From a bacterium (GTDB lineage Bacteria; Hydrothermota; Tepidihabitantia; Tepidihabitantales; Tepidihabitantaceae): 64,000 bases of DNA. Every line of letters begins with the position of its first letter. Positions within the stretch are counted from its first letter, which is position 1. The stretch spans positions 32,449 through 96,448 of the forward strand of contig JAWOHE010000089.1 in assembly GCA_046485285.1 (NCBI GenBank). The letters are read 5' to 3'. Positions 39 through 50,336 of this stretch are shown here, one piece after another. Under the pieces are notes generated by a model. It saw only the letters and a program-made list of their open reading frames with translations, made no database searches and had not been told where the DNA came from. The translations under genes were made by a program, and so were the position numbers.

Positions 39-1229
39 ATGCGCTGGTTGCTGCTGTCAGCCGTCCTGCTCGCGGCCGGGTGCTACTACCCGGCCTACTA
101 CCCGCCGGCCGGCGCGAGCTCGGCCCCGGCCGCGGACCGGCCCGAGGTCGTGCTGGCGGGCGGGGAGGGCACCGAGGTGCTGGCCGAGGGCGCGGGGGCA
201 ATCACCGTCCCGGGCGGGATCGACATCGCCCGCGACGCCGCGGTCTCCGACGCCCTGCGCAAGGCCGTCGAGCAGGGCGTCGGCACGTTCATCGACTCCG
301 AGACGCGGGTCGAGAACTGCCAACTGCTGTCCGACCGCATCTACTCGAAGTCGCGCGGCTACGTGTCATCCTACCGGGTCGTCACCGAGAGCCGGGACGA
401 TGGGCTCTACCGCGTCGTGGTCCGGGCGAAGGTGCGGACGAGCGACATCGAGAACGACCTCGCGGCAATCGGCATCCTGCTCCGCGAGCAGGGCCGGCCG
501 CGACTGATGGTCGTCGTCCGCGAAGTGCCGTCGGGCCCGGACCGGGGCGGCGGCGACCCGGCGATGCTCGAGACGATGCTCATCGACGCGTTCCAGGGCC
601 GGGGCTACCCGGTCGTCGACGCGGCGACGGTCGCCCGGAACATCGAGAAGGAACAGCTCCGGCTGATCCTCGAGGGCGACGACCGGACCGCGATGCTGGT
701 CGGAATGAAGACCGGCGCGGAAATCGTCGTCGCGGTCACGGCCGAGCGCTCGGTCGCGAGCCGGGTCATCGCCGGCACGGCGCGCGAGGTCTACCGGTTC
801 CGGGTCAGTGCCCGGGCGGTCAACGTCGAGAGCGGCGAGGTGCTGGGCGCGACGGCGCCGACGGTCGAACTGCCCTTCAGCGAGGACGAGGCCCGGCGCC
901 GGGCCGCGGACACGACGAGCGCGGCGCTCATCAGCCGGATTCTCGGCGGCTGGACCCGGCGCGAGAACGTCACCATCATCCAGGCGTCGAACGCGACCTT
1001 CGAGCGGGTCCAGCAGCTCCGGGACGAGGTCCGCGCGAAGCTCCGCGGCGTGACCCAGGTCATCAGCCGCGACCTGACCGGCAGCGCGGCGACGCTCGAG
1101 GTCGTCTCGGAGGCCTCGTCGCAGGAGGTCCTCGACGGACTCAGGACGCGAGGCATCGCGGTGCCGTTCGAGGTGCTGGGCCTGGCCGGCAACCGCATCG
1201 AAATCAGGTTCACCGGGGGGGCGGAGTGA
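39..1229 (+). CDS. hypothetical lipoprotein (signal peptide, LAAGC lipobox)
   Basis: 396-aa ORF. N-terminus MRWLLLSAVLLAAGC is typical of a lipoprotein signal. Globular alternating hydrophobic/charged composition. The stop overlaps the next start (GTGA). Confidence 0.55.
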   Translation: MRWLLLSAVLLAAGCYYPAYYPPAGASSAPAADRPEVVLAGGEGTEVLAEGAGAITVPGGIDIARDAAVSDALRKAVEQGVGTFIDSETRVENCQLLSDRIYSKSRGYVSSYRVVTESRDDGLYRVVVRAKVRTSDIENDLAAIGILLREQGRPRLMVVVREVPSGPDRGGGDPAMLETMLIDAFQGRGYPVVDAATVARNIEKEQLRLILEGDDRTAMLVGMKTGAEIVVAVTAERSVASRVIAGTAREVYRFRVSARAVNVESGEVLGATAPTVELPFSEDEARRRAADTTSAALISRILGGWTRRENVTIIQASNATFERVQQLRDEVRAKLRGVTQVISRDLTGSAATLEVVSEASSQEVLDGLRTRGIAVPFEVLGLAGNRIEIRFTGGAE

Positions 1230-18104: not shown

Positions 18105-19337
18105 CTAGTTGCCGGTGTCGGCGCAGTCCTGGCCGGAGAAGCGGGCCTGGTAGGCTTCCCAGGCCTCGCGGCGGATGCGCTCCATCTCGCAGATGGCGTG
18201 CCAGGACTCGTCCTGGCGGCCGAGGAAGAGCAGGGCGTCGGCGAGGGTGACGTAGGCCTGCTGGGCGTTGGGGTCGAGCCGGATTGCCCGTCGGCTGGAG
18301 CTGATTGCGAGGCGGAGGTGGCCGCGGCGGAGGTGGAGGTCGCCGAGCATCGCGATTGCCCCGGCATCCTCGGGCACGAGCCGGGTGAGCCGGCGCGCGG
18401 TGCGGGCGGCGTCGTCGAGCCGGCCGGCCTCGCAGTAGGCCCGGCTGAGCCGGGCGAGGACGTCGGGGTCGTCCGGTTCCTCGCGAGCGAGCCGCTCGAG
18501 GGCGGCGATGGCCTCCGGTCGCATGTTGAAGTGTTCGTAGAAGCCGCTGGTCAGCTCCGGGGAGTCGCCGAAGCGCTGGGCGATTTCGCCGTAGAGGTCG
18601 ATGGCGTCGTCGGAGCGGTTGAGGCGGCGCAGGCAGTCGAGGAGGTAGAAGTGACCGGCCGGTTCGTCGGGCTCGTCGTTGACCGCGCGGGCGAACTCGC
18701 CGGCGGCCTGCTCGATCATTCCCTCGTGGTAGTAGTCGCGGCCGAGTTTCTGGTGGGGGTTCTCGATGTCCGGCGCGACCTCGCGGGCGCGGGAGTACAG
18801 GGCGAGCGCGGAGTCGTACTCGCCGTCCATCGCGTAGAAGCCGCCGAGCGAGACGAGCGCGCGGACATTGTCGGGCTCGCGCTCGAGCGCGCGCCGGCAC
18901 GCGGCGACGCCCTTGTCGCGCTCGCCGGAGTATTCGTGGACGACGCCGAGGCCGAGGATGAGCTCGAGCCGGTCGGGCAGCTCGGCGAGCGCGCCCTCGA
19001 TGAGGTCCTCGGCGCGCGAGAAGTTGGCGAGGAAGAGGTAGCGGATGCCCTCGCAAGCCCGGGTCCAGGGGTTGCGGCGGTCGAGCTCGCGGGCGTGGGA
19101 GCAGAGCTGTTCGAGGGTGTCTTCCCGAGTGACGATCTGCGCGCAGAGGGCGGCGAGGTAGTGGGCGCGGAGGTCGTCGGGCGAGTACTCGAGCGCCTCG
19201 AGAAACAGCCCGAGCGCCTCGTCCTCGCGCTCGCGGTAGAACTCGGCGAGGCCGCGCTCGATGAGGCCGCTCGCGGTCGCGATCGACGGCCGGAGCCGGG
19301 ACCGGGTGCCGCGCCGGGCAGGGGCAGGAGAGTCCAT
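18105..19337 (-). CDS. TPR repeat protein
   Basis: 411 aa from ATG 19337 (MDSPAPARRG). Repeated 34-aa W-LG-Y-A-F-A-P units. The longer track ORF extends into the divergent promoter region. Confidence 0.75.
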   Translation of the reverse strand: MDSPAPARRGTRSRLRPSIATASGLIERGLAEFYREREDEALGLFLEALEYSPDDLRAHYLAALCAQIVTREDTLEQLCSHARELDRRNPWTRACEGIRYLFLANFSRAEDLIEGALAELPDRLELILGLGVVHEYSGERDKGVAACRRALEREPDNVRALVSLGGFYAMDGEYDSALALYSRAREVAPDIENPHQKLGRDYYHEGMIEQAAGEFARAVNDEPDEPAGHFYLLDCLRRLNRSDDAIDLYGEIAQRFGDSPELTSGFYEHFNMRPEAIAALERLAREEPDDPDVLARLSRAYCEAGRLDDAARTARRLTRLVPEDAGAIAMLGDLHLRRGHLRLAISSSRRAIRLDPNAQQAYVTLADALLFLGRQDESWHAICEMERIRREAWEAYQARFSGQDCADTGN

Positions 19338-19390
19338 CACCGCCAATATTGTAGCCGGGCCGGGGCGGTCTGGCAACTGCCGGCGCGGGA

Positions 19391-19418
19391 TTGACAGATT
19401 TCCGGCCGGTGTTAGACT
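19391..19418 (+). promoter_or_regulatory. sigma70-like promoter TTGACA-N16-TAGACT
   Basis: Read directly. About 35 nt upstream of ATG 19452. Confidence 0.35.
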
Positions 19419-19451
19419 TGGTCGTTTGCCGACAACCAGAAGGGAGAGCCG

Positions 19452-20441
19452 ATGCCGACAATGCGCAAGGCCGCCGTCGCGGCGCTGCTGCTGCCGCTCG
19501 TCGCGGGCGCGGCGAGCATCTGTGTCTGGAACTACGACCCGCTGGACCGGTTCTTCGACCCGGCGGTCGGGGATTCGATTGACTGCAGTTACTGGGTCGA
19601 GCGGGTGCTGTCCGAGCAGGGCCACTCGGTCGAGGTACACGACAGCTACCTGCCCGGGGACATCACGGGCTACGACCTGGTGTTCTGCCTGATGGGCTGG
19701 TACCGGTGCTGAGGGGACAACTGCACCGTCGGTTCGACGGAGCGTACCAGCCTGATAGCATTCCTTCATTCCGGCAAGGCGGTCTACGCCGAGGGTGGGG
19801 ACTTCGGCTATTCGAACCGCAGCAATGAGTTCTGGCCCTACTTCGGCTGCAGTTACCTCGGCGACGGCAACGCCTCGGCCAACGTCCAGAGCCTGACCGG
19901 CGTGGCCGGGACGTTCGCCGCGGGACTCGCCTTCGGGCATGCCTACGGCGAACCGCCCGACGCCTGGGTCGACGAGATCGGGGAGGACGGCGGCACGCTG
20001 TTCCTGCGCGACCAGTCCGGCGTCGGCCGGGCGATTCATTACTCGAACTCGAACTGGCGAACCGCGTTCTCGGCGCCGGTCTTCGGGGCGATCCGGCCGA
20101 CCGACCGAACCGACCTGATGCGTGGGATCACGAACTTCCTTCTCGACGGAACCGCGGTTGGTGAGCGGCCGGGCGCGGCCGGGCCAGCCGGATTCACGGT
20201 CGCGCCGAACCCGGCGCGGCCGGGCCAGCCGGTCCGAGTGCGGGTGCCGGCCGGGACGGGCAGGGTGACGGTCCACGATGCCTCGGGCCGGACCGTTGCG
20301 ACGCTCGAACCGGACCACGCCGGCGTGGCGAGTTGGAGCTGCCTCAGGCCGGACGGCCGGGCGGTGCCGGCAGGCGCGTACTTCGTGCGCGCGGCGACGG
20401 GCGGCCAGACCCTGGGCCGCACGCTGGTGCTGGCTCGGTAG
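19452..20441 (+). CDS. secreted T9SS-CTD protein with a single in-frame TGA (codon 87) - candidate selenoprotein, or pseudogene
   Basis: Signal peptide MPTMRKAAVAALLLPLVAGAAS. Continuous 330-codon frame with one TGA at 19710-19712 inside 'VFCLMGWYRC-U-GDNCT'. C-terminus '...AGAYFVRAATGGQTLGRTLVLAR' is a T9SS sorting domain. Confidence 0.5.
19726..19740 (+). promoter_or_regulatory. SECIS-like hairpin (CCGTCG-GTT-CGACGG), 14 nt 3' of the in-frame TGA
   Basis: Perfect 6-bp stem with a G/U-containing apical loop. It can extend with bulges (ctgca / agcgtaccag). Position matches bacterial SECIS geometry. Confidence 0.3.
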
Positions 20442-20451
20442 CGGGGATTGT

Positions 20452-20492
20452 CGAACGAGCGGCCGGGAGGAGACTCCCGGCCGCCTTCGTTC
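20452..20492 (+). terminator. strong hairpin (CGAACGAGCGGCCGGGA-ggagac-TCCCGGCCGCCTTCGTTC) after the 19452 gene
   Basis: A 16-17-bp stem read directly. No T-tract follows. Confidence 0.4.
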
Positions 20493-20835
20493 AGGCGGAT
20501 GAAATGAGGAACCGCGATGCGTCAGGAGGCCCAACGCACCGCGGTTCCGGTCCCCATTCAGAGTGCAGGTCGTCGGGCGGTGAGGAGCGCGACACCACCC
20601 GGTGAGAGAACCTCACTCTAGCTCGGTCAGACTCTCCTAAGCCCTATGTATGCGCTACTGATATGCACAGAGCGTACCAAAGTCTGGCGATGGTGTCGCT
20701 GCGTCTAAGTCATTGATAACAATGCACAACTTCAGAACTGGTAGATGTGACAGTAGACATCAGCTCGCCTGCGCCGCCGAAATCTGCTGTTCGACTGCCG
20801 AAATCTGCACGGCAGCTGGTGACGAAGGTGGCGAG

Positions 20836-22422
20836 CTAGATGCCGTACTCGGCGATTCTCCGCCGCAGTGTGTCGCGGTGGAGGCTCATCATCTCGGCGG
20901 CCCTGGTGATGTTGTTTCCGGAGCGCTCGAGAGCCTCGATAATCGCGTGCTTCTCGATGGCCTTAATACTAAGGCTCCCGACGAGTCCCTCGAGGGTCTG
21001 CCGTCGCTCGGGCCGGGGTGCCCGCTGGCCGAGAAACCGCATCACACCGATGGTTGAGATGACGTGGCCGACCGAGACCGCCGCGCTGCCGTCGTACTGG
21101 GCGCGCTCCCAGGCCTGCTCGAGCAGCGCCCGGAGGGTGCGGAAATTGCCCCTGAAGACGTCATTGTCACCGCTGATGTACTCGCCGACGAGCTGGTGGA
21201 CGAAGCGGGCCGCGCCCTCGTCGACCTCGATCGGCCGGGGCCGGCGGGGGCTGGCGTTGCGCTCCGCGGCGACGAAGCTGAAGAACTCGCGGACGTCGGA
21301 CTCGACGACCGCGGGGGTCTCATCCTGCCAGCGGTCGATGAGCGACGGGACCGGCAGGCACTGCTGGACGACCCGGCTGTAGAAGTCGGGCCGGAAGCTG
21401 ACTACGAGTTCGTCGATCGTGCGGTTGGTCGCGGCAATCACGCGCATATCGACCGGGATCTCGCTCGAACTGCCGACGCGCCGGATGCGGCGGTTCTCGA
21501 TGGTCCTGAGGAGCTTGAGCTGGACCTCGGGGCTGATGTCGCCGATTTCATCGATGAACACGGTCGAGCCGTTGCCGTACTCGAAGACGCCCTCGCGGTC
21601 GCCGGTCGAGCCGGTGAACGCGCCCCGGACGTGGCCGAAAAGCTCGGACTCGATGAGGTTGCGGTCGAGCGCGGCGATGTTGACGGCACAGGGCAGGCCG
21701 CGGACCGGGTCATCGGGAACGCAGCGCAGACTGCAGCGGTGAAGCGCGTTGGCGACGAGTTCCTTGCCGACACCCGGTTGGCCGAGTATCAGGACGACCG
21801 AGTCGGCAGGCCCGAGCCGTTCGATTTCGTGGGCGAGGAAGACCATCCGGCGCGAGCGGCCGACGACCATCCGGTGCTTCGCGCGCCACTCGGCCCTGCG
21901 CTTCTCGTCGAGCAGCCGCATCGCGAAGGCGTCGACCCGCTCGGCGAGCGGCTCGAGGTCGGCCCGGTCGGGCGGGACGCTGACCAGATGGCAGAGGCCC
22001 TGGGCCGGGTAGAGCATGAAGTGGTGGAAGCGACGCATGCGCTCGTCGTCGGCATCGCGGGACAGGAGCAGGACCGGCACGATCGGGTCAATCCCGGTCT
22101 CCCGCATCAGCGCGTAGATGATCAGGCCCTGGAACTCGCGGGCATTGAAGTCTCTCGGAACAGGGTAATTCAGCTCGGGGTAGCCGACGAGCTTCCGCTC
22201 ATCTTCGACCCCGGTGAAGTCAACGCCGATGACGACCGCGGACACGAACCGGTCCAGGTTGCGGACGTGCCAGTCGCGCAGGGACTCGAAGCAGTCGAGG
22301 CCGATCAGCTCGAACTCGCGGCCGAGCCGTCCGTAGTCGAACGAGGTGATGGCGCTCGAGATGGCCTCGAGCCGACTGCTAACCCCCTCGACGACGATGA
22401 CGACCGGCAGTTTGGCGTCCAT
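20836..22422 (-). CDS. sigma-54-dependent Fis-family transcriptional activator (non-canonical N-terminal sensor domain)
   Basis: 528 aa. AAA+ core 'GQPGVGKELVANALH', 'GAFTGS' (GAFTGA variant), 'FRPDFYSR'. C-terminal HTH 'SIKAIEKHAIIEALERSGNNITRAAEMMSLHRDTLRRRIAEYGI'. Confidence 0.85.
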   Translation of the reverse strand: MDAKLPVVIVVEGVSSRLEAISSAITSFDYGRLGREFELIGLDCFESLRDWHVRNLDRFVSAVVIGVDFTGVEDERKLVGYPELNYPVPRDFNAREFQGLIIYALMRETGIDPIVPVLLLSRDADDERMRRFHHFMLYPAQGLCHLVSVPPDRADLEPLAERVDAFAMRLLDEKRRAEWRAKHRMVVGRSRRMVFLAHEIERLGPADSVVLILGQPGVGKELVANALHRCSLRCVPDDPVRGLPCAVNIAALDRNLIESELFGHVRGAFTGSTGDREGVFEYGNGSTVFIDEIGDISPEVQLKLLRTIENRRIRRVGSSSEIPVDMRVIAATNRTIDELVVSFRPDFYSRVVQQCLPVPSLIDRWQDETPAVVESDVREFFSFVAAERNASPRRPRPIEVDEGAARFVHQLVGEYISGDNDVFRGNFRTLRALLEQAWERAQYDGSAAVSVGHVISTIGVMRFLGQRAPRPERRQTLEGLVGSLSIKAIEKHAIIEALERSGNNITRAAEMMSLHRDTLRRRIAEYGI

Positions 22423-28278: not shown

Positions 28279-30843
28279 TTGACGAAGGCAAAGCTGACCG
28301 CACTCGAGAAGAAACTCGCGCTCGGGCCGGGCGCGCTGGCGTGGACCTGCCCGCCCGGGTGTCTCAAGTTCACGACCACCGACGACATCAAGCCACCCGC
28401 GGCCGACCCCGGCGACGACCACTGCGGCATCGTCGGCCAGCGCCGGGCGGTTGACGCGCTTGCGCTCGGGCTCGAGATAAAGGCCTCGGGCTACAACGTC
28501 TTCGTCACCGGGCCGGTCGGCACGGGCCGGACGACGACGGTCCGCCAGCTCCTCACGCGCTACGAGCGGGCGCCGCGCCGGCTCGACGACAAGTGCTACG
28601 TCAACAACTTCAAGGACCCGGACCAGCCGATCCTGCTTCGGCTGGCGGCCGGGGCGGGCCGGCGGTTCGCGCGGGAGCTGGACGAGTTCGTCGAATACCT
28701 CGCCGCCAACCTGCCCAACCAGTTCGAGAGCGAGGCCTACCAGCACAGCCGGGCCGCGATCGTCGAGTCGTTCAAGGAACGGGGCGGGGGCAAGGTCCGC
28801 GAGTTCGAGAAGAAGGTCGCCGCGGCCGGGTTCGCGCTCGTCCAGGTCGCGCCGTTCGTCAAGCCGGAGCTGGCGCCGATCGTCGAGAAACAGCCGGCGA
28901 AGATGGACGCCCTGCCGGCGCTGGTTGATGAGGGGCGGCTGACCATGGCGCGGGCGGACGAGATCCGCAAGAGCCACCGGGAACTGACGGGCGAACTCGC
29001 GGCGATCTTCAAGGAGATCCGCGGCGACGAGCGCGAGGCCCGCGAGGCGCTCGAGGCGCTTGACCGGGGCGTGGTCGAGCCGGTGCTCGGCGAGCGGCTC
29101 GGCGACATTGCCGACCACCACCCGGGCGAGAAGGTCAAGGCCTGGCTCGACGACGTCAAGGAGTCGATCCTCGGCAACATCGACCTGTTCCGGAGCCAGC
29201 CCCAGGCCGAGAAACCGGCGCCGGGCGCGGTTGACCCGTACCTCGAGTACCGGGTCAACGTGCTGGTCGACAACCGCCGGACGAAGGGCGCGCCGATCGT
29301 CTTCGAGACCAACCCGAACTACAAGAACCTGTTCGGGACGATCGAGCGGGTGGTTGACCGGTCCGGCCAGTGGCGGACCGACTTCACGAAGGTCAAGGCC
29401 GGGTCGGTCCTGCGCGCGGACGGCGGCTTCCTCGTGCTGAACGCGCTCGACGTGCTGGTCGAGCCCGGGGTCTGGCCGGCGCTGAAGCGGACGCTGCGCA
29501 ACCGGCGGCTGGAGATATCGGCCTACGAGCCGTTCCTGTCGATGCTGTCGCTGACGGCGATGAAGCCGGAGCAGGTCGCGATCGACATCAAGGTCGTGAT
29601 GGTCGGCGACCCATACGTCTACTCGGTGCTGGCGGCCTACGACGAGGACTTCCGGAAGATCTTCAAGGTCCGGGCCGACTTCGACTGGGTGATGGACCTC
29701 GACGACCACGCCATCGGCCAGTACAGCCGGGTCATCAAGCTGCTCTGCGACAACGAGAAGCTGCTCCCCTTTGACCGGAGCGGCGTCAAGCGGGTCGTCG
29801 AGCACGGCGTCCGGCTGGCCGGGCGGCAGGACAAGCTCTCGACCCGGTTCAACATCGTCGGCGACGTGCTCAAGGAGGCGAGCTACTGGGCGGCCCGGAC
29901 CGGGGCGAAGCGCGTCAGGGCCGCGCACGTCCAGCAGGCAATCGACGGCCGGCGCGAGCGGGTCAGGCTCTACGAGGATAAGCTCCAGGAGCTGATCGAC
30001 CGGGGCACGGTGTTCATCGCCACCGCGGGCCGGGCGCAGGGCCAGGTCAACGGGCTGGCGGTCTACGACACCGGCGAGCACGCCTTCGGCAAGCCGGCGC
30101 GAATCACCGCGAAGACCGGGGTCGGCGCGGCCGGCATCATCAACATCGAGCGCGAGTCGGCGCTGTCCGGCCCGACCCACGACAAGGGCGTCTACATCCT
30201 CACCGGGTACCTGCGCAACAAGTACGCCCGGCGCCGGCCGCTGGTGATGTCGGCATCGATAACCTTCGAGCAGAGCTACGGCGGGGTGGACGGCGACTCG
30301 GCCTCGTCGACCGAAGTCTACGCCCTGCTCTCCGACCTCGCCGGGCTCGGCATCCGGCAGGACCTCGCGGTCACCGGCTCGGTGGACCAGCACGGCCGGG
30401 TCCAGCCGATCGGCGGCGTCAACGAGAAGGTCGAGGGGTTCTACGAGGTCTGCGTCCGGCGCGGTCTCACCGGCCGGCAGGGCGTCATCATCCCGAAGGC
30501 CAACGCCGGCGACCTGATGCTCCGGCCGGACGTGGTCGAGGCGGTCGGGAAGGGGAAGTTCCACGTCTACGCGGTCGAGACGATCGACGACGGCATCGAG
30601 CTGCTCACCGGGGTCCCGGCGGGCAAGGCGAGCCGCGGTGGTGCCTACCCGCCGGGCTCGGTCCACGACCGGGTCGCGAAGCGGCTCGAGGAGCTCGCCG
30701 AACTCCAACGGCGCTACGAGGGCGACGGCGCGAAGCCGGCCGCGAAGAAGCGCGGGGCCGGGCTCAGGAAGCGCGGCGAGGCGGGGCCGGCGCGGCGGTC
30801 ACCCGCGCCGCGCGGACGAGGTCGGCGAAGCCCGCGGGCTTGA
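28279..30843 (+). CDS. LonC-like protease: AAA-like domain with degenerate Walker A plus C-terminal S16 Lon proteolytic domain
   Basis: 854 aa. 'GPVGTGRTT' (Walker A with Arg in place of Lys). Large helical insertion. Lon protease core 'YGGVDGDSASSTEVYALLSDLAGLGIRQDLAVTGSVDQHGRVQPIGGVNEKVEGF' (Ser-Lys dyad). Confidence 0.8.
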   Translation: MTKAKLTALEKKLALGPGALAWTCPPGCLKFTTTDDIKPPAADPGDDHCGIVGQRRAVDALALGLEIKASGYNVFVTGPVGTGRTTTVRQLLTRYERAPRRLDDKCYVNNFKDPDQPILLRLAAGAGRRFARELDEFVEYLAANLPNQFESEAYQHSRAAIVESFKERGGGKVREFEKKVAAAGFALVQVAPFVKPELAPIVEKQPAKMDALPALVDEGRLTMARADEIRKSHRELTGELAAIFKEIRGDEREAREALEALDRGVVEPVLGERLGDIADHHPGEKVKAWLDDVKESILGNIDLFRSQPQAEKPAPGAVDPYLEYRVNVLVDNRRTKGAPIVFETNPNYKNLFGTIERVVDRSGQWRTDFTKVKAGSVLRADGGFLVLNALDVLVEPGVWPALKRTLRNRRLEISAYEPFLSMLSLTAMKPEQVAIDIKVVMVGDPYVYSVLAAYDEDFRKIFKVRADFDWVMDLDDHAIGQYSRVIKLLCDNEKLLPFDRSGVKRVVEHGVRLAGRQDKLSTRFNIVGDVLKEASYWAARTGAKRVRAAHVQQAIDGRRERVRLYEDKLQELIDRGTVFIATAGRAQGQVNGLAVYDTGEHAFGKPARITAKTGVGAAGIINIERESALSGPTHDKGVYILTGYLRNKYARRRPLVMSASITFEQSYGGVDGDSASSTEVYALLSDLAGLGIRQDLAVTGSVDQHGRVQPIGGVNEKVEGFYEVCVRRGLTGRQGVIIPKANAGDLMLRPDVVEAVGKGKFHVYAVETIDDGIELLTGVPAGKASRGGAYPPGSVHDRVAKRLEELAELQRRYEGDGAKPAAKKRGAGLRKRGEAGPARRSPAPRGRGRRSPRA

Positions 30844-34794: not shown

Positions 34795-35042
34795 TCGGCT
34801 GGCTCACTTCGCCCGGTCTTCGACAATCGCAATCTCAGCCATCGGCGGGATTCTAGGACTCGCGGTCAGGCGTGTCAATTGGGCCGGGCGGAATCGAGTC
34901 GTGGCCCGACAGCCGAGCCTCAAGTCTCACCCGCCGCCATCCCGGCGGCCGGCCGTGCCGCCAGCCGGGGCGAGGGTATGGCCGCCGCCGGGCGGGTGTC
35001 AAGCCCTGCGGGGGGAGCGGACGGGGCCGGGGGATGCGGGCG

Positions 35043-35175
35043 GGGGCAGAGACCGGGCCGGGTTCAGTCGCCGGGGGTGCCTGTCTGTTCCTCCCGCGCG
35101 CGGATTCTATCGGCGCGCGCGGAACGAGCCTCCGCGCCTCGGAGGCTGTTAGGCGATGTCCCCGAAATCTCCTGG
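35043..35175. repeat. ~135-bp direct repeat, copy A2
   Basis: See copy A1. Lies at the left edge of the low-GC island. Confidence 0.65.
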
Positions 35176-35181
35176 CGAGCC

Positions 35182-35574
35182 CTACTGGCGAGACGGCTCC
35201 TCGGGGTGATGGAGGATCAGGTCAAGCGCCCCGACAAACTTGTGGCTGGATTCCGCCATCTGCTGCGCATCGGCGCGCCCCGAAAGGAATCCATCTGCGA
35301 CAGCTCGGAACTCAGCGAGGTGGCGTTTATACATCTGCTGGGCACCTTCTGCCACCTGCATTCCGCGTGCCGTCATCTCAAGCCACAGGACTTTCCAAGT
35401 CAAGTAGTCCGTCGGTTCGGGCACAACCCTGTCGTCGCCTCGATTCATGAGTATGGCGGCGCTGCAGATCATCACAAAGCGGTTCAGGTAGCGTTCACCC
35501 TCCGGGCCAGCGAATCTCGTGACGGCGGCCATAGAAGCTGCTTGCCTCAGCAGCTCTTGAGCTTCCTTGTTCAA
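35182..35574 (-). CDS. hypothetical protein (130 aa), last gene of the island operon
   Basis: Protein-like composition in a ~55% GC context. Same strand, 80 nt downstream of the DUF4263 gene. Confidence 0.45.
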   Translation of the reverse strand: MNKEAQELLRQAASMAAVTRFAGPEGERYLNRFVMICSAAILMNRGDDRVVPEPTDYLTWKVLWLEMTARGMQVAEGAQQMYKRHLAEFRAVADGFLSGRADAQQMAESSHKFVGALDLILHHPEEPSRQ

Positions 35575-35654
35575 GATGTCCTCCTTGGCGTCATAGCAGA
35601 TCTAGTTGTTGATCTACTAAGTCCGGCCTTCGACAATCGCAGTCTCGGCCTCCA

Positions 35655-36659
35655 TCAAAACGGCGTCGAGTCGTGCACATCCTGCGGAAGCTTCCCCTGG
35701 TTCGGGTTCAGGATGCGCTTGGCCCTTTCCAGCACATGATCGTATGTGAGTATGGTGAGGTTGTGATAGCAGGAATTGAGGAGGCGGTATGTCTCTTGCT
35801 TGGGAGTATCCCACCCGGTCGAGCGGCCGTAGATGAGGACACATCGTGGCTTGATGGCCTTAACGCCTTGCATCCTCTCGGTGAATTCCAAATCGTTCAT
35901 CCTCCGTTCCACCTCGTGGATGTAGCGAGCGGACTGCGTGATTGCCTCGACTAGCTTCCCGGATGGTACGGGGTGCCCGCCGTTCGCTAGCTTCCGCCAG
36001 AAGCGTAGGTCCGGCGCTGGTTTCTTTATCTCGATTATGTCCACGAATCCATCGTACGCCTGCATGATGAAATCCGCCACATTCCCCACGTCGATTCTCC
36101 GCTCGTCCAGTACACGCACGAACTCACTCCCAAGGACCCAAGGGTTCGACTTGAACCAGTTCTCCCAGTCTGATTCATCAAGGTCTCGGCAGAGCATTTC
36201 CTCAAACTGCCTGACCGCCTTCTTATGTGACTGCAGTTGGATGCCTGCAGCTATCTCGTCGGGCAGAATCTCATTCTCGGCAATGAAACGCAGCAGGTCA
36301 GTCCTGTTGGGATTCGCGAATATTGCCCGCAGGTGCGCTAGGTTCTCGGCGTCGAATCGCTCATCTATGGCGATGTACTTGCGCTGGCCGCGTCGAAACG
36401 GTTCGTAGCTCTCCTGAAGGAAGCTGATCAGGGCGTCAAACTCGTCGTGGTCTAGAGTAAGCTCGCTCCGGGGTTTGGCGGTTTCGCATTTACCAGACGG
36501 TCGGTCGTATCGACCTATCTTCAGCCGAATATCCTCCCGCGGAGTCTTGTGGCTGATCTTCCAGAAGACCACCTTTGTGAACGTCTTCTTGGTTGTACGC
36601 AGAACCTTAGATAGGTAGTCTTCCAGTCCCGGTCTAGGGGCCTGCTTTGTCAGTGTCAT
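35655..36659 (-). CDS. DUF4263 (Shedu SduA-like) PD-(D/E)xK nuclease domain protein
   Basis: 335 aa from ATG 36659 (MTLTKQ). 'ESDWENWFKSNPWVLGSEF', 'RIDVGNVADFIMQAYDGFVDIIEIKKPAPDLF' (D..(D)-E-I-K), 'SGKLVEAITQSARYIHEV', 'PRCVLIYGRS'. This order of blocks matches DUF4263. Confidence 0.5.
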   Translation of the reverse strand: MTLTKQAPRPGLEDYLSKVLRTTKKTFTKVVFWKISHKTPREDIRLKIGRYDRPSGKCETAKPRSELTLDHDEFDALISFLQESYEPFRRGQRKYIAIDERFDAENLAHLRAIFANPNRTDLLRFIAENEILPDEIAAGIQLQSHKKAVRQFEEMLCRDLDESDWENWFKSNPWVLGSEFVRVLDERRIDVGNVADFIMQAYDGFVDIIEIKKPAPDLRFWRKLANGGHPVPSGKLVEAITQSARYIHEVERRMNDLEFTERMQGVKAIKPRCVLIYGRSTGWDTPKQETYRLLNSCYHNLTILTYDHVLERAKRILNPNQGKLPQDVHDSTPF

Positions 36660-36717
36660 CGAACCCCCAATCCAGACGTTACGTCCGGACCACTTCTGTG
36701 ACGCGAGCGTGACGTCT

Positions 36718-36927
36718 TCACTGCAGCACCCTTTTGAGGTCCGCCCGCCAGTCCTTGTCCGCGTATTCGCCTTCATCGAGAATCTGGAAGCGGAACTGCT
36801 CGTCTGCAAAGCCCTTGCCAAGCTCCTGCCAGGTTACCTTCTTGCCGACCTCCTCAAACACCCGCGCCACGGTGGCTATCAAGTAAGATGTCCCCGAGAC
36901 CCTTTCACTGCTTCTTTGCCTGGGCAA
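36718..36927 (-). CDS. possible small ORF (69 aa) between the two island genes
   Basis: Protein-like sequence 'VARVFEEVGKKVTWQELGKGFADEQFRFQILDEGEYADKDW'. Overlaps the GHKL gene end by 23 nt and the non-protein-like 5' extension of the DUF4263 frame. Confidence 0.25.
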   Translation of the reverse strand: MPRQRSSERVSGTSYLIATVARVFEEVGKKVTWQELGKGFADEQFRFQILDEGEYADKDWRADLKRVLQ

Positions 36928-38617
36928 ACCGGACGTCGAGCTTTTCCTCGAGGTAACACTTCAGCCGAATCACTTGGATCTTGGTCCTGGTGTTGCCGGC
37001 ATCGAGGTAGTACTTACTGGCGTCGGCATCTCCAGTCGGGTAGACGATGCGCCGTTTGGTTTTGTCGACGCTGGACTCGAGCTCAAACCCATCTTCGCAG
37101 TCATCCGTGAAGTCCCAGCAGACGACCCACCTGAGGTTGGTGAAGCCGTGGTTGAAGTTACGATGTCCCAATCTGTGCTTGAACTCGACGTACCCGTGGG
37201 GCAGTTCGGAGACTCCCGGGTTGCCTATGCTACGAGCGATCATGTCGATTCCCCGTGCTGTATTGTAGTCGCAGGGCAGAAACTCAAATAAGTCAGGGTG
37301 TTTGGCGTAGACTCTCATGAACAGCCCGAACAGCTCGGCCTCATTCTGCGGCTCCAGCACCTCCTGGTCGTCTATCGAGGCGCGGGCACGATACTTGATG
37401 CTCTTGACCCGGCTCTTGTAGTCGGTCTCCTCCTGCTTCTGTGTCCGAGCCTCCTCCTGCATGTTCATCAGCGCGTACAGCTGGTTCTTCAGGATGTCCC
37501 GATCCACGGCTTCGACCACCTCAGCTATGGCTATCTTGAGCCCAGCAGTGACTTGGGGGTCGGTATTCGCGAATGTGCCACGGTTAGCTGTGAGATTGAG
37601 TTCCTGGCAGTTCACGAAGCCATGCAGGAGTACCCAGGCGTTGCCGCCAGTTCCAAAGCTAGATATCCACTCATTGACTCGGCAGACCGGGATGTAGTCC
37701 TTGCAGAGCCAGATGCCGTATCTGTCGCCTACTTTGTATCCATCCGAGCCCTTGCGAAGCCGCTGCTTGATCATCGGATTGTATGCCCTCTTCGCCAAAT
37801 CCCCTTCGACGTAGATGACGGCCTCGTAGCGCACGTCGGGAAGGTCTTGCAGTACGTCAGTCTTGTGGTACCGCTTCACGAAGTAGTCGGCGGCGTCGTA
37901 GGAGTACCGGTCGAATAGCTTATTGAGGTCGGCGGCCTCCGGTGGGAACGGGTGGCCATGGGGTAGGGCCTCATGCTCCGCAACATCCAATCCCTTGAGA
38001 TGCACAGTTAGCTCTCGCTTCACCTGGCCTGTCAGTTCCTTCTCCACCGAGCCGGCTTTCGTGCACCACAGCACGTAGTCCTTCACGACACGCTGTGTAA
38101 ACGTGCCGCTTGCGTTGTTATTGTAGCCTTGGAGCTCTATCTCAGTGAACGTCTTGCCATCGTTGGGCGGGGAGACTTCCCACCACTCAGGCGCATGGAG
38201 TTCGTGGTTACAGAGCTTCCTGAAGGGGCGCTCACATTCCGCAGCGAAGGCCCCATCAGGACCAAGTGTGCTCACCCTGACCTTCTCTGAGTTGAGGAAG
38301 ATCTTGGTGCCATGGCCCTTCTCGCCGATCTTCTGCGAGTCGCCACGGGACTCCGAATGGCCCAGTCCCCAGAACGTCGCCGAGACCGCCTGCTTGGACA
38401 TTCCGGTGCCGTCGTCCCGGAAGCGGACTATCAGCGTTCTTGCGCCTTCCAGCCGTTGCGTCTCAAAGGTGATCCAGATATTCGAGGCTTCCCAATCATG
38501 CGCGTTGGATATTGCCTCGCGAACGGCCTCCAGCGGTTCCGCGAAGTCGTTCGCAATCTCGAAGAACTCCCGAGCTTCATCTACTGACGGCACCACTGTG
38601 TGTCTAGTTGTGTCCAT
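36905..38617 (-). CDS. GHKL-type ATPase (HATPase_c/MORC-like) with C-terminal DUF3883/PD-(D/E)xK-like region
   Basis: 570 aa. N box 'EAISNAHDWEASNIWI', G1 'RFRDDGTGMSK', G2 'KIGEKGHGTKIF'. C-terminal 'ARGIDMIARS...ELPHGYVEFKHRLG' (D...E-x-K). Low GC (~50-55%) compared with ~70% in the flanks. Confidence 0.6.
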   Translation of the reverse strand: MDTTRHTVVPSVDEAREFFEIANDFAEPLEAVREAISNAHDWEASNIWITFETQRLEGARTLIVRFRDDGTGMSKQAVSATFWGLGHSESRGDSQKIGEKGHGTKIFLNSEKVRVSTLGPDGAFAAECERPFRKLCNHELHAPEWWEVSPPNDGKTFTEIELQGYNNNASGTFTQRVVKDYVLWCTKAGSVEKELTGQVKRELTVHLKGLDVAEHEALPHGHPFPPEAADLNKLFDRYSYDAADYFVKRYHKTDVLQDLPDVRYEAVIYVEGDLAKRAYNPMIKQRLRKGSDGYKVGDRYGIWLCKDYIPVCRVNEWISSFGTGGNAWVLLHGFVNCQELNLTANRGTFANTDPQVTAGLKIAIAEVVEAVDRDILKNQLYALMNMQEEARTQKQEETDYKSRVKSIKYRARASIDDQEVLEPQNEAELFGLFMRVYAKHPDLFEFLPCDYNTARGIDMIARSIGNPGVSELPHGYVEFKHRLGHRNFNHGFTNLRWVVCWDFTDDCEDGFELESSVDKTKRRIVYPTGDADASKYYLDAGNTRTKIQVIRLKCYLEEKLDVRFAQAKKQ

Positions 38618-39043
38618 GTTCCTGTCTGCTCCCTAGGGTTGGCATTGCCCGCATCGTAGCGAGCGGGGAGGAGGTTGTCAAGCGAGTTGGTGCATCGTTG
38701 ATGGCTCGCGGTTCAGCGTTCACCGTACCGGGCCGTCCGTGTTCATCGGTGTCCACCCAGGGCTGACGCTCGGGGCCGGTATGGAGGGTCTGGCGCGGTA
38801 TCGCGCCGCGCACGGCTGGGGGAGGGCCCACAGCCGAATCGGCAGGCCGGGCGGAAGTAGCGCACAACCTGTCCACGACGCAGGTCGTGATTGACAACTG
38901 GCGAACAGCGGGTAGAACTGAAGCGCTGTACCAGGTGCAGGCTCAGGGCAGCGTGCTCTGGTCCACTTGCTAGAGCGTGCGTTCTATGGATTCCGGCGGA
39001 GCCGGGAGGTAGAATCTGGGTCCGTCCGGAGGTGCTGAGGGAG

Positions 39044-39697
39044 GTTTGCTTGCTAGGTGAAAGATGCTGCTACGAGACCATATCGGTCCTCGCGCTGGCA
39101 CTGTTGCTCGCTCATGGATGCGTTAGCGCCCCTGCAGTTCGCCGCTACCCACCGGACGATGTCATATGGTCCCCGCGGACTGAGTACGGAAGGGCGTACA
39201 AGAACCACAACGTTACACTCCTGACATCTCTCGTTCAGAGCATCCAGACTTCGCCTCAGCTCGGGTCTGCTACTCTGGAGCGGGAAGGACTGCTCGTGAC
39301 CTACCGCGCCGAGGAAGGAGACACCGGCTACTACCTGTCTGTACACCTCACCTGCAATGTGGTGTTCAACACGCTGCAGACCAACTACCTTCAGAGGGCC
39401 GCCAGCGCCTACTCGCGGATTCTCTTTCCATTTGCCTGCATTCTGGCTGAACACCCAGAGTTACTCGACTACGAGCGTATCAGCGGGGTTCTGGTGTGGC
39501 TCGATTGGCGGGCGACCAACTTCCTTGAGGACCGGTACAGAGTGTTTGCGCGAACCGAGGGGATGAATGCCTTTGTGTCAACGCCGGTCTTGAGGGAGTT
39601 CGCCGGCGAGAAGATATCTATTCAAGAACTCGGGCGCCGCTCCGTATTCACGTCTACCGGTGGGAGAACAGAACTTGACTTCAGCAACATCCCCTGA
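39044..39697 (+). CDS. hypothetical secreted/lipoprotein at the right edge of the low-GC island
   Basis: TTG start 6 nt after GGGAGG. Signal 'ISVLALALLLAHGC'. The track's longer ORF from 38891 overlaps a promoter-like region. Confidence 0.4.
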   Translation, partial: VCLLGERCCYETISVLALALLLAHGCVSAPAVRRYPPDDVIWSPRTEYGRAYKNHNVTLLTSLVQSIQTSPQLGSATLEREGLLVTYRAEEGDTGYYLSVHLTCNVVFNTLQTNYLQRAASAYSRILFPFACILAEHPELLDYERISGVLVWLDWRATNFLEDRYRVFARTEGMNAFVSTPVLREFAGEKISIQELGRRSVFTSTGGRTELDFSNIP

Positions 39698-40243
39698 CAT
39701 CGTGTCGGTGCTTGGCTGGTTATTTCCCGGTTCTCGGTCCCTCGGACCCGAGTCAGCCCTGGCCCACAGTCCGATAGCGGGTAGACGCGCTCGTGCGCCC
39801 TGCAGGGGGCAGGGGCTTGGCTTGACTCGACTAGTGCGATGTCCGGACGCGGCCTCCTGCCGAAGAGGAAGCAGTCCGTTGGCGAGGCCGAAGTACGCTT
39901 CGTCTGCAACGTCATACACCCGCGTCCGGCCGTAGTAGCACGCGGTCGGCCAAGCCCGGGCGACAGGGTGGGCTTGACCGGCGGGCGCACGATGGGCGGT
40001 AGCGTGCCGGGCTTCGGACGGACGCGGCCCGGAGCGGCGCGCTGACCAGAGGCCCGGACAGACCATCGTGATCGAGTGCCAAACGAGGAACTCAGTCGCC
40101 GGGCCAGGGTGAGCCGGGTGTCTGCCAGCCCGGCATCCTGTCTGGGGCCGGAGACGGCACATGCGATGGAGCAGGCGACCGAATGGGCGACCCGGCCCCA
40201 GTGCCGGCGGCGGGCTGGTCGCCGGGTCCGGGCTTCGGCGGTC

Positions 40244-41146
40244 TCAGCGGTAGGCCGGCGCGGGCGCGCGGACCCGGAGGGCGCGGGGGAGGATTTCGAG
40301 CCGGAACCGGCGGGCGTCCGGCCAGTCGAGGAGGTCGCCATCGAGCTGGACGGGGACCGGGCCGTCGAATTCGAGGGCGAGTTCGGCGGCGCGCAGGAAC
40401 CTGACTTCGGGCAGGGAGCCGTGGGTGCCGCGGACGAGTTCGGGCAGGCAGCGGAGTATCCGGAGCCGGCCGACGGCGGCGATGACGCAGAGGTCGAAGA
40501 GGCCGTCGTCGAGCGCGGCGTCGGGCGCGACTTTCATCCCGCCGCCGTAGCAGGGGCCGTTGGCCGCGGCGACGAGGAGCACGGGCTGTTCGATTGTCTG
40601 CGCGCCGGCGGCGAGGCGGCAGCGCGGGCAGTCGAAGTCGCGGACCGCGAGCAGGACCGCGGCGAGGTAGAGCGGCATTCCCCGCAGGTGCCGGAGCCGG
40701 CGGGCCTCGACGATGACCCGGGCGTCGAAGCCAAAGCCGGCGGCGTTGGCGAAGGCCGCGACGCGGCCGCCGGATTCGAGCCGGCCGAGGTCAATCGGCC
40801 GGGCCGGGCATTCGGCGGCGAGGCGGCAGGCGGCGGCGACGTCGGGCGGGATGCCGAGGTTGCGGCAGAAGTCGTTGCCCGAGCCAACCGGGACCGCGGC
40901 AAGTTCGGTGTCGCTGCCGGCGAGGCCGGCGGCGACCTCGCGGGCGGTGCCGTCGCCGCCGACCGCGACGACGAGCCCGCGGCCGCGGGCGGCGCGGGCG
41001 AGGTCGGTGGCGTGGCCGGGGCGCTCGCTCTCGACGAACTCGATGCCCGGGATGAGCCGGGCGAGCTCGGCGCGGGCCCGGGCGCGGAGTTTCGCGCCGC
41101 GCGCCCGGCCGGCGACCGGGTTGATGACGGCAAGGGCGCCTGGCAA
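40244..41146 (-). CDS. diacylglycerol/lipid kinase family protein (DAGK_cat, YegS/BmrU-like)
   Basis: 'AVINPVAGRARG', 'VVAVGGDGTAREVAAGL', 'VPVGSGNDFCRNLGIP', 'GGGMKVAPDA'. Start set at TTG 41146 because the upstream ATG (41230) would overlap the divergent gene's start codon. Confidence 0.7.
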   Translation of the reverse strand: MPGALAVINPVAGRARGAKLRARARAELARLIPGIEFVESERPGHATDLARAARGRGLVVAVGGDGTAREVAAGLAGSDTELAAVPVGSGNDFCRNLGIPPDVAAACRLAAECPARPIDLGRLESGGRVAAFANAAGFGFDARVIVEARRLRHLRGMPLYLAAVLLAVRDFDCPRCRLAAGAQTIEQPVLLVAAANGPCYGGGMKVAPDAALDDGLFDLCVIAAVGRLRILRCLPELVRGTHGSLPEVRFLRAAELALEFDGPVPVQLDGDLLDWPDARRFRLEILPRALRVRAPAPAYR

Positions 41147-41228
41147 GGTCCTGATGATGCCGCCGGGGCAGGGGCTGTCAAGCCGGGCCGGGCTTGCGGC
41201 CGGGCCCGGCGTCCGGTATAACCTTGCC

Positions 41229-42692
41229 ATGAGAGCAATCACGGTTTCGCTCGCCATCCTGCTCGCGGCGCCGGCCGCGGCGCAGGACTGGGAGACGGTC
41301 GGCGGCAACTCGGCACGCTCGGGGCTGAGCCCGTGGTCCGGGCCGAGGTACGGCGAGGTCAGGTGGAGCATGCCGACCCTGCCCTCGACGATCGGGATGC
41401 AGGTATATACCTGGGACACGCTCTGCGCGGTCGGCCGCTACACCTTCAGCCCGAACCTGATAACCGTCGCCTGCCACAACCTGCTGACCGGCGACACGGC
41501 CTGGACGCGGAACTGGTCGGGCGCGGGTAAGTACCTGCCGTTCGGCGCCCGCGACGGCCGGCTCTACGTCCGCAACTTCAAGGAGTCCAGGTTCGACAGC
41601 CTGTACTGCGTGAGCATGAGCACCGGCGACATCCTCTGGCAGGTCGATTCCGCGTGCGGGCTCGGCATCGTCTGGAGCGCGGCGTTCACCGACGAGGGCG
41701 ACCCGGTCGTTGCCGGGGGCAGGTACCCGCTGGCGCGCTACGACCGTCTGACCGGCGACACGGTCTGGACCTGCGCGCGGCCGATACCCAACTCCGGGGC
41801 GGAGTGCGTCGGCGTTTCCGACGGGTTCGTCTACGCCTGGATGGGCGCGGGCATCAACCGGCCGAAGTACCTGATCGCGATTGACGCGGCGACCGGCGTC
41901 ATCACGGACACGACACCGGAACTGCCCGGCGACGGCGACCAGGAGATGCCATTCTCGGTCGGGCCGGGCCGGGTCGTCTACTGCCAGCGCGACGGCGGCC
42001 GATTCCACGCGTTCCGGCACACCGACACCGGCTTCGTCGAGCTGTGGAACGCGGACCCGTTCGGCGCGAGCCCGTGGATGAATTATGGCATCGCGCCCGA
42101 CAGCACCCTGCTCGTGCCGCGCGGCCGGCGGCTGTTGCGGCTCGACCAGCACACCGGCGCGGTGCTCGATTCCTCGCCCGAGCTGACCGCAGGCGACGCG
42201 CTGGCGCCCCGGGTCGCGGTCGACCGGCACGGCTGGGTTTACCTCGCGACCGGGGTCAACGCCGGTGGGGGAACGTGGTGCCTGTCGCCGGAGCTCGACA
42301 GTGCGTGGTTCGAGCCGATGACCAGCAGTTACTACACCGGCCCGGCGATCGGGATGCACGGCATCACGGTCGTCTCCGGCCCGGGCACGACAATCAGGGC
42401 CTGGCAGCCGGCGCTGGGCATTGCCGGCGGCGAGCCGGGACCGGCACGGCGTCTCGCGCCGGGCTGCAGCCCGAACCCGTTTCGGTCCGGGACGCTGGTC
42501 CGCGCGGCCCGGCCCGGGGTGGTGACGGTGTACGACGCGCTCGGCCGCGAGGTGCGGCGCCTCGAGGCCGGGCCGGCCGGCGCGTGGTGGGACGGCCGGG
42601 ACGCGGCCGGCGTGGCGCTGGCCGCCGGGGCCTACATCCTGCGCGCGGGCGGCGAGCAGGTCCGGGTCGTGATTGCCGGGGTGGCGCGGTGA
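41229..42692 (+). CDS. secreted PQQ-like beta-propeller repeat protein with T9SS C-terminal domain
   Basis: 487 aa. Signal MRAITVSLAILLAAPAAAQ. Repeated 'TGDTVW...G.lY' propeller blades. C-terminus 'VVTVYDALGREVRRL...GAYILRAGGEQVRVVIAGVAR'. Confidence 0.65.
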   Translation: MRAITVSLAILLAAPAAAQDWETVGGNSARSGLSPWSGPRYGEVRWSMPTLPSTIGMQVYTWDTLCAVGRYTFSPNLITVACHNLLTGDTAWTRNWSGAGKYLPFGARDGRLYVRNFKESRFDSLYCVSMSTGDILWQVDSACGLGIVWSAAFTDEGDPVVAGGRYPLARYDRLTGDTVWTCARPIPNSGAECVGVSDGFVYAWMGAGINRPKYLIAIDAATGVITDTTPELPGDGDQEMPFSVGPGRVVYCQRDGGRFHAFRHTDTGFVELWNADPFGASPWMNYGIAPDSTLLVPRGRRLLRLDQHTGAVLDSSPELTAGDALAPRVAVDRHGWVYLATGVNAGGGTWCLSPELDSAWFEPMTSSYYTGPAIGMHGITVVSGPGTTIRAWQPALGIAGGEPGPARRLAPGCSPNPFRSGTLVRAARPGVVTVYDALGREVRRLEAGPAGAWWDGRDAAGVALAAGAYILRAGGEQVRVVIAGVAR

Positions 42693-46062: not shown

Positions 46063-46104
46063 GGTCCAGCATACCGGCCGCCGCCCGCCGGTCAACGGTA
46101 CGGG

Positions 46105-50236: not shown

Positions 50237-50266
50237 TTGACAAGGGCCGTCCGGTTGAGGTATGCT
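50237..50266 (+). promoter_or_regulatory. sigma70-like promoter TTGACA-N18-TATGCT
   Basis: Read directly, upstream of ATG 50337 (RBS AGGAGG). Confidence 0.35.
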
Positions 50267-50336
50267 ATCGCCGGCAGAGAGCGGGCGCGCCGGACCGGTT
50301 GCCCGATGCCCAGTCCGGCGGCCCAAAGGAGGTAGA

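Follow-up and report, generated by a model that had tools for sequence, protein, structure and literature searches.

Bacterial selenoproteins with an intragenic selenocysteine insertion sequence (SECIS), for which Escherichia coli FdhF is the paradigm, are made by gene-specific recoding of a TGA codon that is an ordinary stop elsewhere. The same arrangement is seen in a gene of 329 codons within a 64-kb stretch of bacterial DNA (contig JAWOHE010000089.1; hereafter the window, whose GC content is 70% and to which all coordinates refer), where a single in-frame TGA is followed by a small hairpin. The gene differs from FdhF-type selenoproteins in its protein family, its fold and its destination, as well as in having a close family with no cysteine orthologue, and its hairpin is minimal in comparison with FdhF-type SECIS elements, with a 6-bp stem and a 3-nt loop. 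Comparison with its relatives makes it very probable that this is a genuine SECIS-dependent selenoprotein, and a member of an uncatalogued, obligate-selenocysteine (Sec) family of proteins sorted by the type IX secretion system (T9SS). The mechanism is standard, while the family, the fold context and the secretion route are new.

Thioredoxin reductase carries a C-terminal Gly-Cys-Sec-Gly redox center, with which the predicted protein shares a vicinal Cys-Sec pair followed by Gly (R-C-U-G-D in the window) that could likewise form a selenenylsulfide. In thioredoxin reductase, however, this dyad sits on the flexible C-terminal tail of a flavoenzyme, whereas here it is predicted to lie in an internal loop of an amidotransferase-like domain, in a protein that has no FAD or NADPH domain and that, being exported, would have no NADPH-linked reductant at hand. 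Adjacent Cys and Sec residues are also found in the "CU"-motif selenoproteins HgcA, MerB-like SaoL, SaoC, MbdU and KCU-star, several of which are annotated as metal- or organometal-handling (PMC13188914, Table 1). The dyad is shared with these proteins but fold and secretion signals differ, and no NCBIfam model of the listed "CU" selenoproteins matches the window protein, with which they show no sequence or domain kinship.

A glutamine amidotransferase selenoprotein related to CTP synthase has been described by deep-Sep (NF004836, PyrG-type, GxUxG; PMC12013277). Although it has a class I amidotransferase-type fold in common with the window protein, Sec there stands in for the catalytic Cys, the nucleophile of the GxCxG elbow, in a cytoplasmic triad enzyme, whereas the window protein is predicted to be secreted, has no conserved triad and would carry Sec in the loop after the preceding strand. 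We considered whether the two might belong to one family and ruled this out, the deep-Sep protein being of the PyrG-type GxUxG kind. STM3548/STM1381, the IFT52/GldG "GIFT" domains, the GH42 trimerization domain and ThuA-like proteins share the fold and also lack a catalytic triad, but with identities of 8-13% and no Cys-Sec or CxxC/CxxU insertion in any of them. Type A cargo of the T9SS (TIGR04183 / PF18962) has in common with the window protein a signal peptide and a C-terminal beta-sandwich sorting domain of ~80 residues, the window tail falling just under the curated cutoff.

Compared by domain identifiers, nothing similar appears among the 119 prokaryotic selenoprotein families of a 2026 inventory, the sole amidotransferase entry being the unrelated PyrG-type protein. 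Envelope selenoproteins do occur in the same inventory, namely a TonB-dependent receptor, an MtrB/PioB-type barrel and ExtKL. The initial annotation of this gene, which proposed a secreted selenoprotein and called it unusual, is therefore right as regards the T9SS-cargo context and the family, both of which are new, and too sweeping in that selenoproteins of the envelope were already known. Our literature search found no T9SS cargo reported with selenocysteine, only incidental co-mentions, and no paper linking selenoproteins with T9SS or with candidate division WOR-3. By their own account, pipelines such as deep-Sep may miss selenoproteins that have no Cys homologues.

The in-frame TGA and the hairpin that follows it

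Positions 19452-19709 and 19713-20441 translate as one open reading frame (ORF) whose sole interruption is the TGA at 19710-19712, just as initially annotated. The context is ...YDLVFCLMGWYRC-TGA-GDNCTVGSTERTSLIAFL..., which reads ...FCLMGWYRC-TGA-GDNCTVGSTE. The frame is open from 19713 onward, and the separately listed ORF 19902-20441 exists only because a gene caller restarts at an internal GTG.

Among 5.8 billion proteins searched there were 15 relatives, nearly all annotated as fragments that begin just past the TGA position. At the DNA level there are 46 related loci, comprising 13 from GTDB genomes (8 of them labeled candidate division WOR-3), 27 from JGI metagenomes and 6 from contig look-ups; the loci, most of which belong to WOR-3, yield 35 distinct segments of 75 nt and 25 distinct full-length genes, whose proteins are 40-82% identical. 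The homologous codon is TGA in every one of the 46 loci, and hence in 47/47 sequences with the window, never TGG, TGC or TGT, and the surrounding motif is FCLMGW[YWF][RH][CT]-TGA-GDN[CSNQ]. Cys precedes the TGA in 24 of the 25 unique full-length genes, with Thr in the remaining one (L020), while the Cys of GDNC varies between C, S, N and Q across loci. Because this second Cys can be replaced by S, N or Q, the core motif, as read from the alignment, is a vicinal Cys-Sec dyad and not CxxxC; of the two redox motifs offered in the initial annotation only the former survives. Locus L020 (3262 region) reads RT-U-GDNC and has a hairpin with an A.G mismatch at -1.6 kcal/mol, for which decay of the copy, reliance on the downstream Cys or a sequencing error could each account.

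The sole "full-length" protein match, P0001, prints W at the site, but its DNA has TGA there and the W stems from a code-4 gene call. Logan code-4 calls at L001 301-1293 and L049 251-1285 yield the full-length proteins P0001 and P0040 with "W" at the Sec site, an artefact exposed by the failure of both to re-translate under code 11.

The codons on either side of the TGA evolve under similar constraint. The median ratio of nonsynonymous to synonymous substitution rates (dN/dS; Nei-Gojobori, 25 unique genes) is 0.34 before the TGA, for residues 25-86, and 0.27 after it for residues 98-150, a segment that in the window precedes any in-frame start codon after the TGA. The first in-frame ATG, GTG or TTG past the TGA lies between +11 and +138 codons depending on the locus, with no conserved restart, and in L001 no in-frame start of any kind comes before the one 138 codons downstream; because its position varies so widely, restart cannot explain the downstream conservation. 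Distant homologues without a TGA run continuously across the site. Since the TGA is conserved and the codons downstream of it are under selection, this comparative evidence shows UGA87 to be decoded rather than read as a stop.

Elsewhere in the window TGA ends at least eight well-supported genes with complete C-terminal domains, among them those for a P-type ATPase, LonC and three proteins with FlgD_ig tails, whose terminal domains are likewise complete (Table 1), and no second in-frame TGA-split gene was seen across the 64 kb. It is confirmed that recoding is gene-specific and that TGA has not been reassigned in this genome, in agreement with the view first taken of the neighboring genes.

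The hairpin core consists of CCGTCG (19726-19731), the loop GTT (19732-19734) and CGACGG (19735-19740), which together form a perfect 6-bp stem. Thirteen nucleotides separate it from the TGA, so that the core begins at the 14th, and the perfect hairpin first described is confirmed; the loop begins 19 nt past the UGA. The published model of the bacterial SECIS (bSECIS) specifies a loop of 3-9 nt, an upper stem of 4-16 bp, G in the first two loop positions, a UGA-to-loop distance of 16-37 nt and a minimum free energy of -7.5 kcal/mol or lower (PMC13188914, Fig. 2 legend). With its 3-nt loop GUU, 6-bp stem and 19-nt spacing, the window hairpin fits this geometry, as had been suggested from the distance.

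What supports the hairpin is comparison across the family. All 35 unique segments have a hairpin with a loop of 3-5 nt, G in the first or second loop position, a stem of 4-7 bp and a spacing of 18-23 nt. Pairing is kept in 98.5% of cells when 22 sequences are aligned in register, with a compensatory C-G to A-U change in L001 and L007. Members with a different peptide at this point, TIAQAE (L016/L034), RVAQSE (L017) and TVAPEE (L022), have different hairpins that are again G-first triloops (UCGCUCA-GGC-UGAGCGA, UUGCUCA-GUC-UGAGCAA and GCUCC-GGA-GGAGC, respectively), those of L016 and L017 differing by one further compensatory pair. At conserved 4-fold sites, codons 88-97 show a third-position entropy of 0.34 bits, compared with 1.40 elsewhere (p = 2e-4), and the proportion of synonymous differences (pS) is 0.29 in the hairpin region against 0.60-0.67 elsewhere, synonymous variation being suppressed only there. 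Across the sequences compared, the joint conservation of TGA and hairpin is far beyond chance.

Fold, sorting signals and the wider superfamily

The signal peptide proposed from the outset is seen throughout the family: by inspection, all 25 full-length homologues begin with a basic n-region, followed by a hydrophobic core and by A-x-A immediately ahead of [IV]C[VI]WNYD. The C-terminal sorting domain requires more caution. Taken alone, the window tail scores 16.9-20.7 bits against TIGR04183 (cutoff 23) and 25.2-27.0 against FlgD_ig (gathering score 27), whereas 17 of 19 family tails match TIGR04183 at E <= 0.01 (best 1.2e-9). By these profile scores the initial assignment to a T9SS type A sorting domain is clear at the level of the family and marginal for the window member itself. 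At least three other window proteins have the same FlgD_ig/T9SS-type tail, namely a PQQ_2 beta-propeller, a protein of unknown family and an M28 peptidase with fn3. The organism uses this FlgD_ig/T9SS-type sorting signal widely.

Between these two signals lies a domain that matches no Pfam or NCBIfam model, and for which a profile search of PDB sequences gave a best E of ~1, with no significant match to any chain. An AlphaFold run on a shallow alignment was unusable (predicted local distance difference test score, pLDDT, of 52) and was superseded by a run with 39 superfamily sequences, in which an AlphaFold2 (AF2) model of the orthologue P0001 (residues 23-241) reached a pLDDT of 95.5 and a predicted template modeling (TM) score (pTM) of 0.93. 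In this model the two halves on either side of the TGA form one compact domain. Foldseek against the PDB returned 2gk3 (STM3548, E 8e-8), 5fms (IFT52 N-terminal domain), 5e9a (GH42 domain), 4e5v (ThuA-like) and 2nv0 (Pdx2, TMq 0.65). The closest folds are non-catalytic members of the class I glutamine-amidotransferase-like group (E 8e-8 to 1e-4, TM ~0.55-0.63), and assignment to the class I glutamine amidotransferase (GATase1) fold is further borne out by a Foldseek probability of 1.0 and TM scores of 0.57-0.65 to Pdx2, PabA and GuaA subunits. The 39-sequence superfamily alignment has no conserved Cys-His-Glu triad, its near-invariant columns being only Y, E, G, G and D, with neither a Cys nor a His conserved.

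Sec falls in the loop between the central strand (VFCLM) and the next helix, which is the only lower-confidence stretch of the model. As modeled, this loop would lie on the sheet's C-terminal edge, beside the end of the strand bearing the invariant Y-x-E-G-x-D, and by its topology this strand end would be the counterpart of the amidotransferase nucleophile elbow.

The domain is widespread. By phmmer, 1.84 billion cluster representatives yielded 475 relatives at E <= 1e-3, most of them domains of secreted, often very large, T9SS-tailed proteins, with some present as duplicates in a single protein or joined to S8 or C25 peptidases or to PKD domains (P0016-P0164). Among the top 150 representatives, 68 begin just past the site and 11 end at it, and TGA-containing members are therefore, to judge from these truncations, numerous. 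Most relatives have no Cys in the corresponding loop, which typically reads LGIYSNN-HVL; insertions in it occur in two groups, the Cys-Sec family and a sister subfamily with WCxG[C/U]GxTPPG. The sister subfamily includes CxxU members with TGA (L049 506-508, L050 1480-1482, L051 56-58) as well as CxxC members (P0028, P0041, P0055, P0070). In L049-L051 a hairpin lies 18-20 nt past the TGA, with G in the first two loop positions and double compensatory changes (GGAAC/GUUCC versus GGAGU/ACUCC). Because loop lengths differ, the equivalence of this CxxU/CxxC group with the window family holds at the level of the loop and not of the residue.

Beyond this group, the residue of P0031 (36% identity) that aligns precisely with the Sec of the window family is Cys. 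In the nearest TGA-free relative, P0020, Arg-Pro stands in place of Cys-Sec, and this replacement of the whole dyad counts in favor of selenocysteine. The comparison of homologues called for by the initial annotation thus finds TGA in all close relatives, no unrelated residue or gap at the site among them, and Cys in distant ones, both in P0031 and in the pairing of CxxC (P0028, P0041) with CxxU (L049-L051). Two Cys forms of the sister subfamily could be compared at the hairpin, which is lost in L052 and retained in similar form in L053. The sister members L049-L053 are larger proteins with HYDIN-like Ig and NIDO domains and a T9SS tail. L053 (NCBI GCA_021108395.1) is a TGC form whose hairpin, strong and SECIS-like, may be the relic of a recent switch from Sec to Cys.

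Readings of the TGA codon

Several observations weigh against a selenoprotein. A close family without any Cys orthologue is atypical for selenoproteins: no Cys-codon version was found among relatives above ~45% identity in either protein database searched. The hairpin is kept in the Cys form L053, and so the two cases available, one lost and one kept, do not tie it to TGA alone. The bare stem, at -7.3 kcal/mol, is just short of the -7.5 criterion (the 51-nt element reaches -14.6), and the fold energy is no better than that of dinucleotide shuffles in this 70%-GC sequence (z = -0.49); because the energy is unremarkable in this comparison, stability is not counted as evidence for the hairpin. 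Rfam at its gathering threshold gave no SECIS or tRNA-Sec match in the whole window, and at E <= 10 on 19680-19800 only chance snoRNA matches and no SECIS. Searches by tblastn with E. coli queries found no SelA, SelB or SelD homologue in the window or the flanks of related loci (~400 kb), and ARAGORN found no tRNA-Sec in the window or in 23 related loci. In the phylum, the metagenome-assembled genome (MAG) WOR-3 MAG-1066, of class UBA3073, has selA, selB, selD and grdA/B/C/E tabulated (PMC9469722, Table S5). The Sec trait therefore exists in the WOR-3 phylum, reported for MAG-1066 and not for the window organism, and MAG-1066 belongs to another class.

The lack of Sec machinery in the DNA searched would agree with the possibility that UGA87 is decoded as something other than Sec, through hairpin-stimulated read-through by a near-cognate or specialized tRNA (tRNA-Trp, or a tRNA-Sec-like species with Cys or Ser) that would place Trp, Cys or Ser at position 87. 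The selection data show decoding and do not fix the identity of the inserted residue, and a few bacteria are known to insert Cys in a SelB- and SECIS-dependent manner with tRNA-Sec-like tRNAs. If Trp or Cys were made, however, TGG, TGC and TGT would be selectively equivalent to TGA, and the strict TGA at all 47 sites is hard to reconcile with this. The site is moreover a vicinal Cys-X dyad, the CxxU/CxxC pair in the sister subfamily is typical of Sec/Cys exchange, the hairpin has bSECIS geometry and Sec machinery is reported in the phylum; we consider insertion of another residue improbable. Still less probable is that the TGA is a true stop and that there are two products, a secreted peptide of 86 residues and a downstream protein with its own initiation, arising by termination-reinitiation or from two genes. 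Gene callers do annotate the locus in this way (P0002 is a 179-aa "hypothetical protein"), and the many top representatives that begin just past the site or end at it would agree with such a division. Against it stand the lack of a conserved restart, the L001 start at +138 codons with intervening codons at a dN/dS of 0.27, and the TGA-free homologues that are continuous across the site; the downstream piece would also have no signal peptide and would be half of one compact domain.

That the TGA reflects a pseudogene, a sequencing or assembly error, or genome-wide reassignment (code 4 or 25) is scarcely credible. The code-4 Logan calls on two short contigs, with their printed W, are what would favor it, whereas the same TGA recurs in 46 independent contigs from many samples and assemblers, purifying selection acts on both sides, and TGA both ends window genes in good number and splits no other gene seen there. 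The contigs and dN/dS together rule out the assembly error or pseudogene against which the initial annotation had cautioned. The explanation that best accommodates these data is that UGA87 specifies selenocysteine, as proposed in the initial annotation, whose suggested checks favored it wherever they were run.

Gene surroundings, proposed role and implications

With a divergent TPR gene on one side and a convergent sigma-54 activator gene on the other (Table 1), the predicted selenoprotein gene forms a monocistronic unit; the related locus L006 has the same synteny. The promoter-like site upstream matches the consensus at 10 of 12 positions, two sites being found in the region against 0.1 expected from shuffles, and may drive transcription. 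The hairpin past the stop codon is a possible terminator, though it has no U tract, and it was not called by the terminator scan because it lacks a T run. An 809-aa ORF at 18105-20534 (-), antisense to the selenoprotein gene, was rejected as an artefact of GC-richness, the true gene on that strand being the 410-aa TPR protein, which has its own promoter-like site at 19376-19348.

Table 1. Features of the predicted selenoprotein gene and of other genes in the window
Feature	Position	Strand	Basis or remark
Complete predicted selenoprotein gene	19452..20441	+	329 codons including Sec87, plus TAG stop 20439-20441
Sigma-70-like promoter, TTGACA-16 nt-TAGACT, extended -10 TG	19391..19418	+	Ends 34 nt 5' of ATG
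Shine-Dalgarno GGGAG	19442..19446	+	5 nt before ATG, read from sequence
Sec-type (secretory) signal peptide, residues 1-20, MPTMRKAAVAALLLPLVAGA, then cleavage, then AS	19452..19511	+	n-h-c pattern, judged by inspection
Class I glutamine-amidotransferase-like (flavodoxin-like) alpha/beta domain, residues ~23-238	19518..20165	+	AF2 model, Foldseek; tblastn footprint 19515-20165
Cys86 codon TGC, vicinal partner of Sec	19707..19709	+	Cys in 24/25 unique full-length genes
In-frame TGA, predicted Sec87	19710..19712	+	TGA at homologous codon in all 46 related loci
SECIS-like hairpin	19723..19743	+	Core CCGUCG-GUU-CGACGG 19726-19740; stem extended below by 2 bp (19723-24 with 19742-43)
C-terminal beta-sandwich sorting domain (T9SS type A / FlgD Ig-like), residues ~250-329	20199..20438	+	Profile matches
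10-bp GC-rich hairpin CGGCCGGGAG-GAGA-CUCCCGGCCG	20460..20483	+	19 nt past TAG stop
TPR gene, 410 aa	18105..19337	-	Divergent neighbor
Sigma-54 activator gene	20836..22422	-	Convergent neighbor
LonC gene	28279..30843		TGA-terminated
PQQ_2 beta-propeller gene, FlgD_ig tail	40713..42692	+	TGA-terminated
P-type ATPase gene	43405..46095	-	TGA-terminated
Gene of unknown family, FlgD_ig tail	50262..52055	+	TGA-terminated
M28 peptidase gene with fn3, FlgD_ig tail	53290..56058	+	TGA-terminated
FlgT_N domain gene	39..1229	+	E 9e-9
Low-GC island	35000..39800		55-61% GC versus 70-75% in flanks
Shedu defence gene (SduA_C)	35655..36821	-	E 5e-20
GHKL-type ATPase gene (HATPase_c_3)	36905..38617	-	Adjoins Shedu gene

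Two further features of the window were noted in passing. The low-GC island, in which the Shedu defence gene adjoins the GHKL-type ATPase gene and two ORFs have no family match, was probably acquired, as a defence island, by horizontal transfer. Near its start the window also encodes a FlgT_N-domain protein (flagellar assembly protein T, N-terminal), in a genome that has FlgD Ig-like tails on secreted proteins.

A plausible course of events can be proposed for the product. The gene would be transcribed from its own promoter as a single-gene unit, and at UGA87 the ribosome decodes instead of stopping; selenocysteine would be inserted by SelB-GTP-Sec-tRNA(Sec), which the conserved hairpin, with its G-first triloop 19 nt downstream, would recruit. 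Judging from the signal peptide, the 329-residue product would be exported through the secretory (Sec) translocon, and its N-terminal domain would fold, as modeled with high confidence, as a class I glutamine-amidotransferase-like alpha/beta domain. The type A sorting domain may then pass the protein to type IX secretion, for release or attachment to the cell surface. In the folded protein the selenol would adjoin Cys86 in the loop between the central beta-strand and the following helix, at the sheet edge where enzymes of the same fold build their active sites. It is plausible that the Cys-Sec center cycles between the selenol/thiol and selenenylsulfide states, as does GCUG of thioredoxin reductase. 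Alternatively, it may act as has been proposed for other "CU" selenoproteins and bind a soft metal or chalcogen substrate; that several of these handle metals suggests a role as soft-metal or chalcogen ligand.

By analogy with these systems, we infer a Cys-Sec redox or soft-metal/chalcogen-binding center at the cell surface. A more specific proposal, which we put forward tentatively and would not yet favor over all others, is that of an obligate-Sec, T9SS-exported extracellular selenoenzyme or selenium ligand, with a thioredoxin reductase-like Cys-Sec on an amidotransferase-like scaffold at the WOR-3 surface, acting on an environmental substrate (polysulfide or elemental sulfur, metals or metalloids, or peroxides) without cytoplasmic reductants.

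If the selenoprotein assignment is correct, a well-populated family would be added to the prokaryotic selenoproteome, one that has been mis-annotated as two truncated hypothetical proteins and is invisible to pipelines that need Cys homologues or existing family models. The Logan "W" at TGA, from code-4 calls that fail re-translation under code 11, flags candidate selenoproteins of this sort and could be mined systematically. The family would also establish selenocysteine in WOR-3, noted in the literature searched only in one supplementary table for a single MAG, and would define a new and widespread secreted domain of amidotransferase-like fold that has no family model. Given the strict absence of Cys variants, it would make a good system for asking when selenium is irreplaceable. 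Selenocysteine would moreover be carried on type IX cargo, at or beyond the outer membrane, which raises the questions of what keeps an exposed selenol functional and what reacts with it. Should the extracellular-selenoenzyme proposal hold as well, then, taken together with the CxxU/CxxC subfamily, it would mean that a single loop has repeatedly acquired redox motifs in a T9SS cargo domain that is widespread and otherwise non-catalytic.

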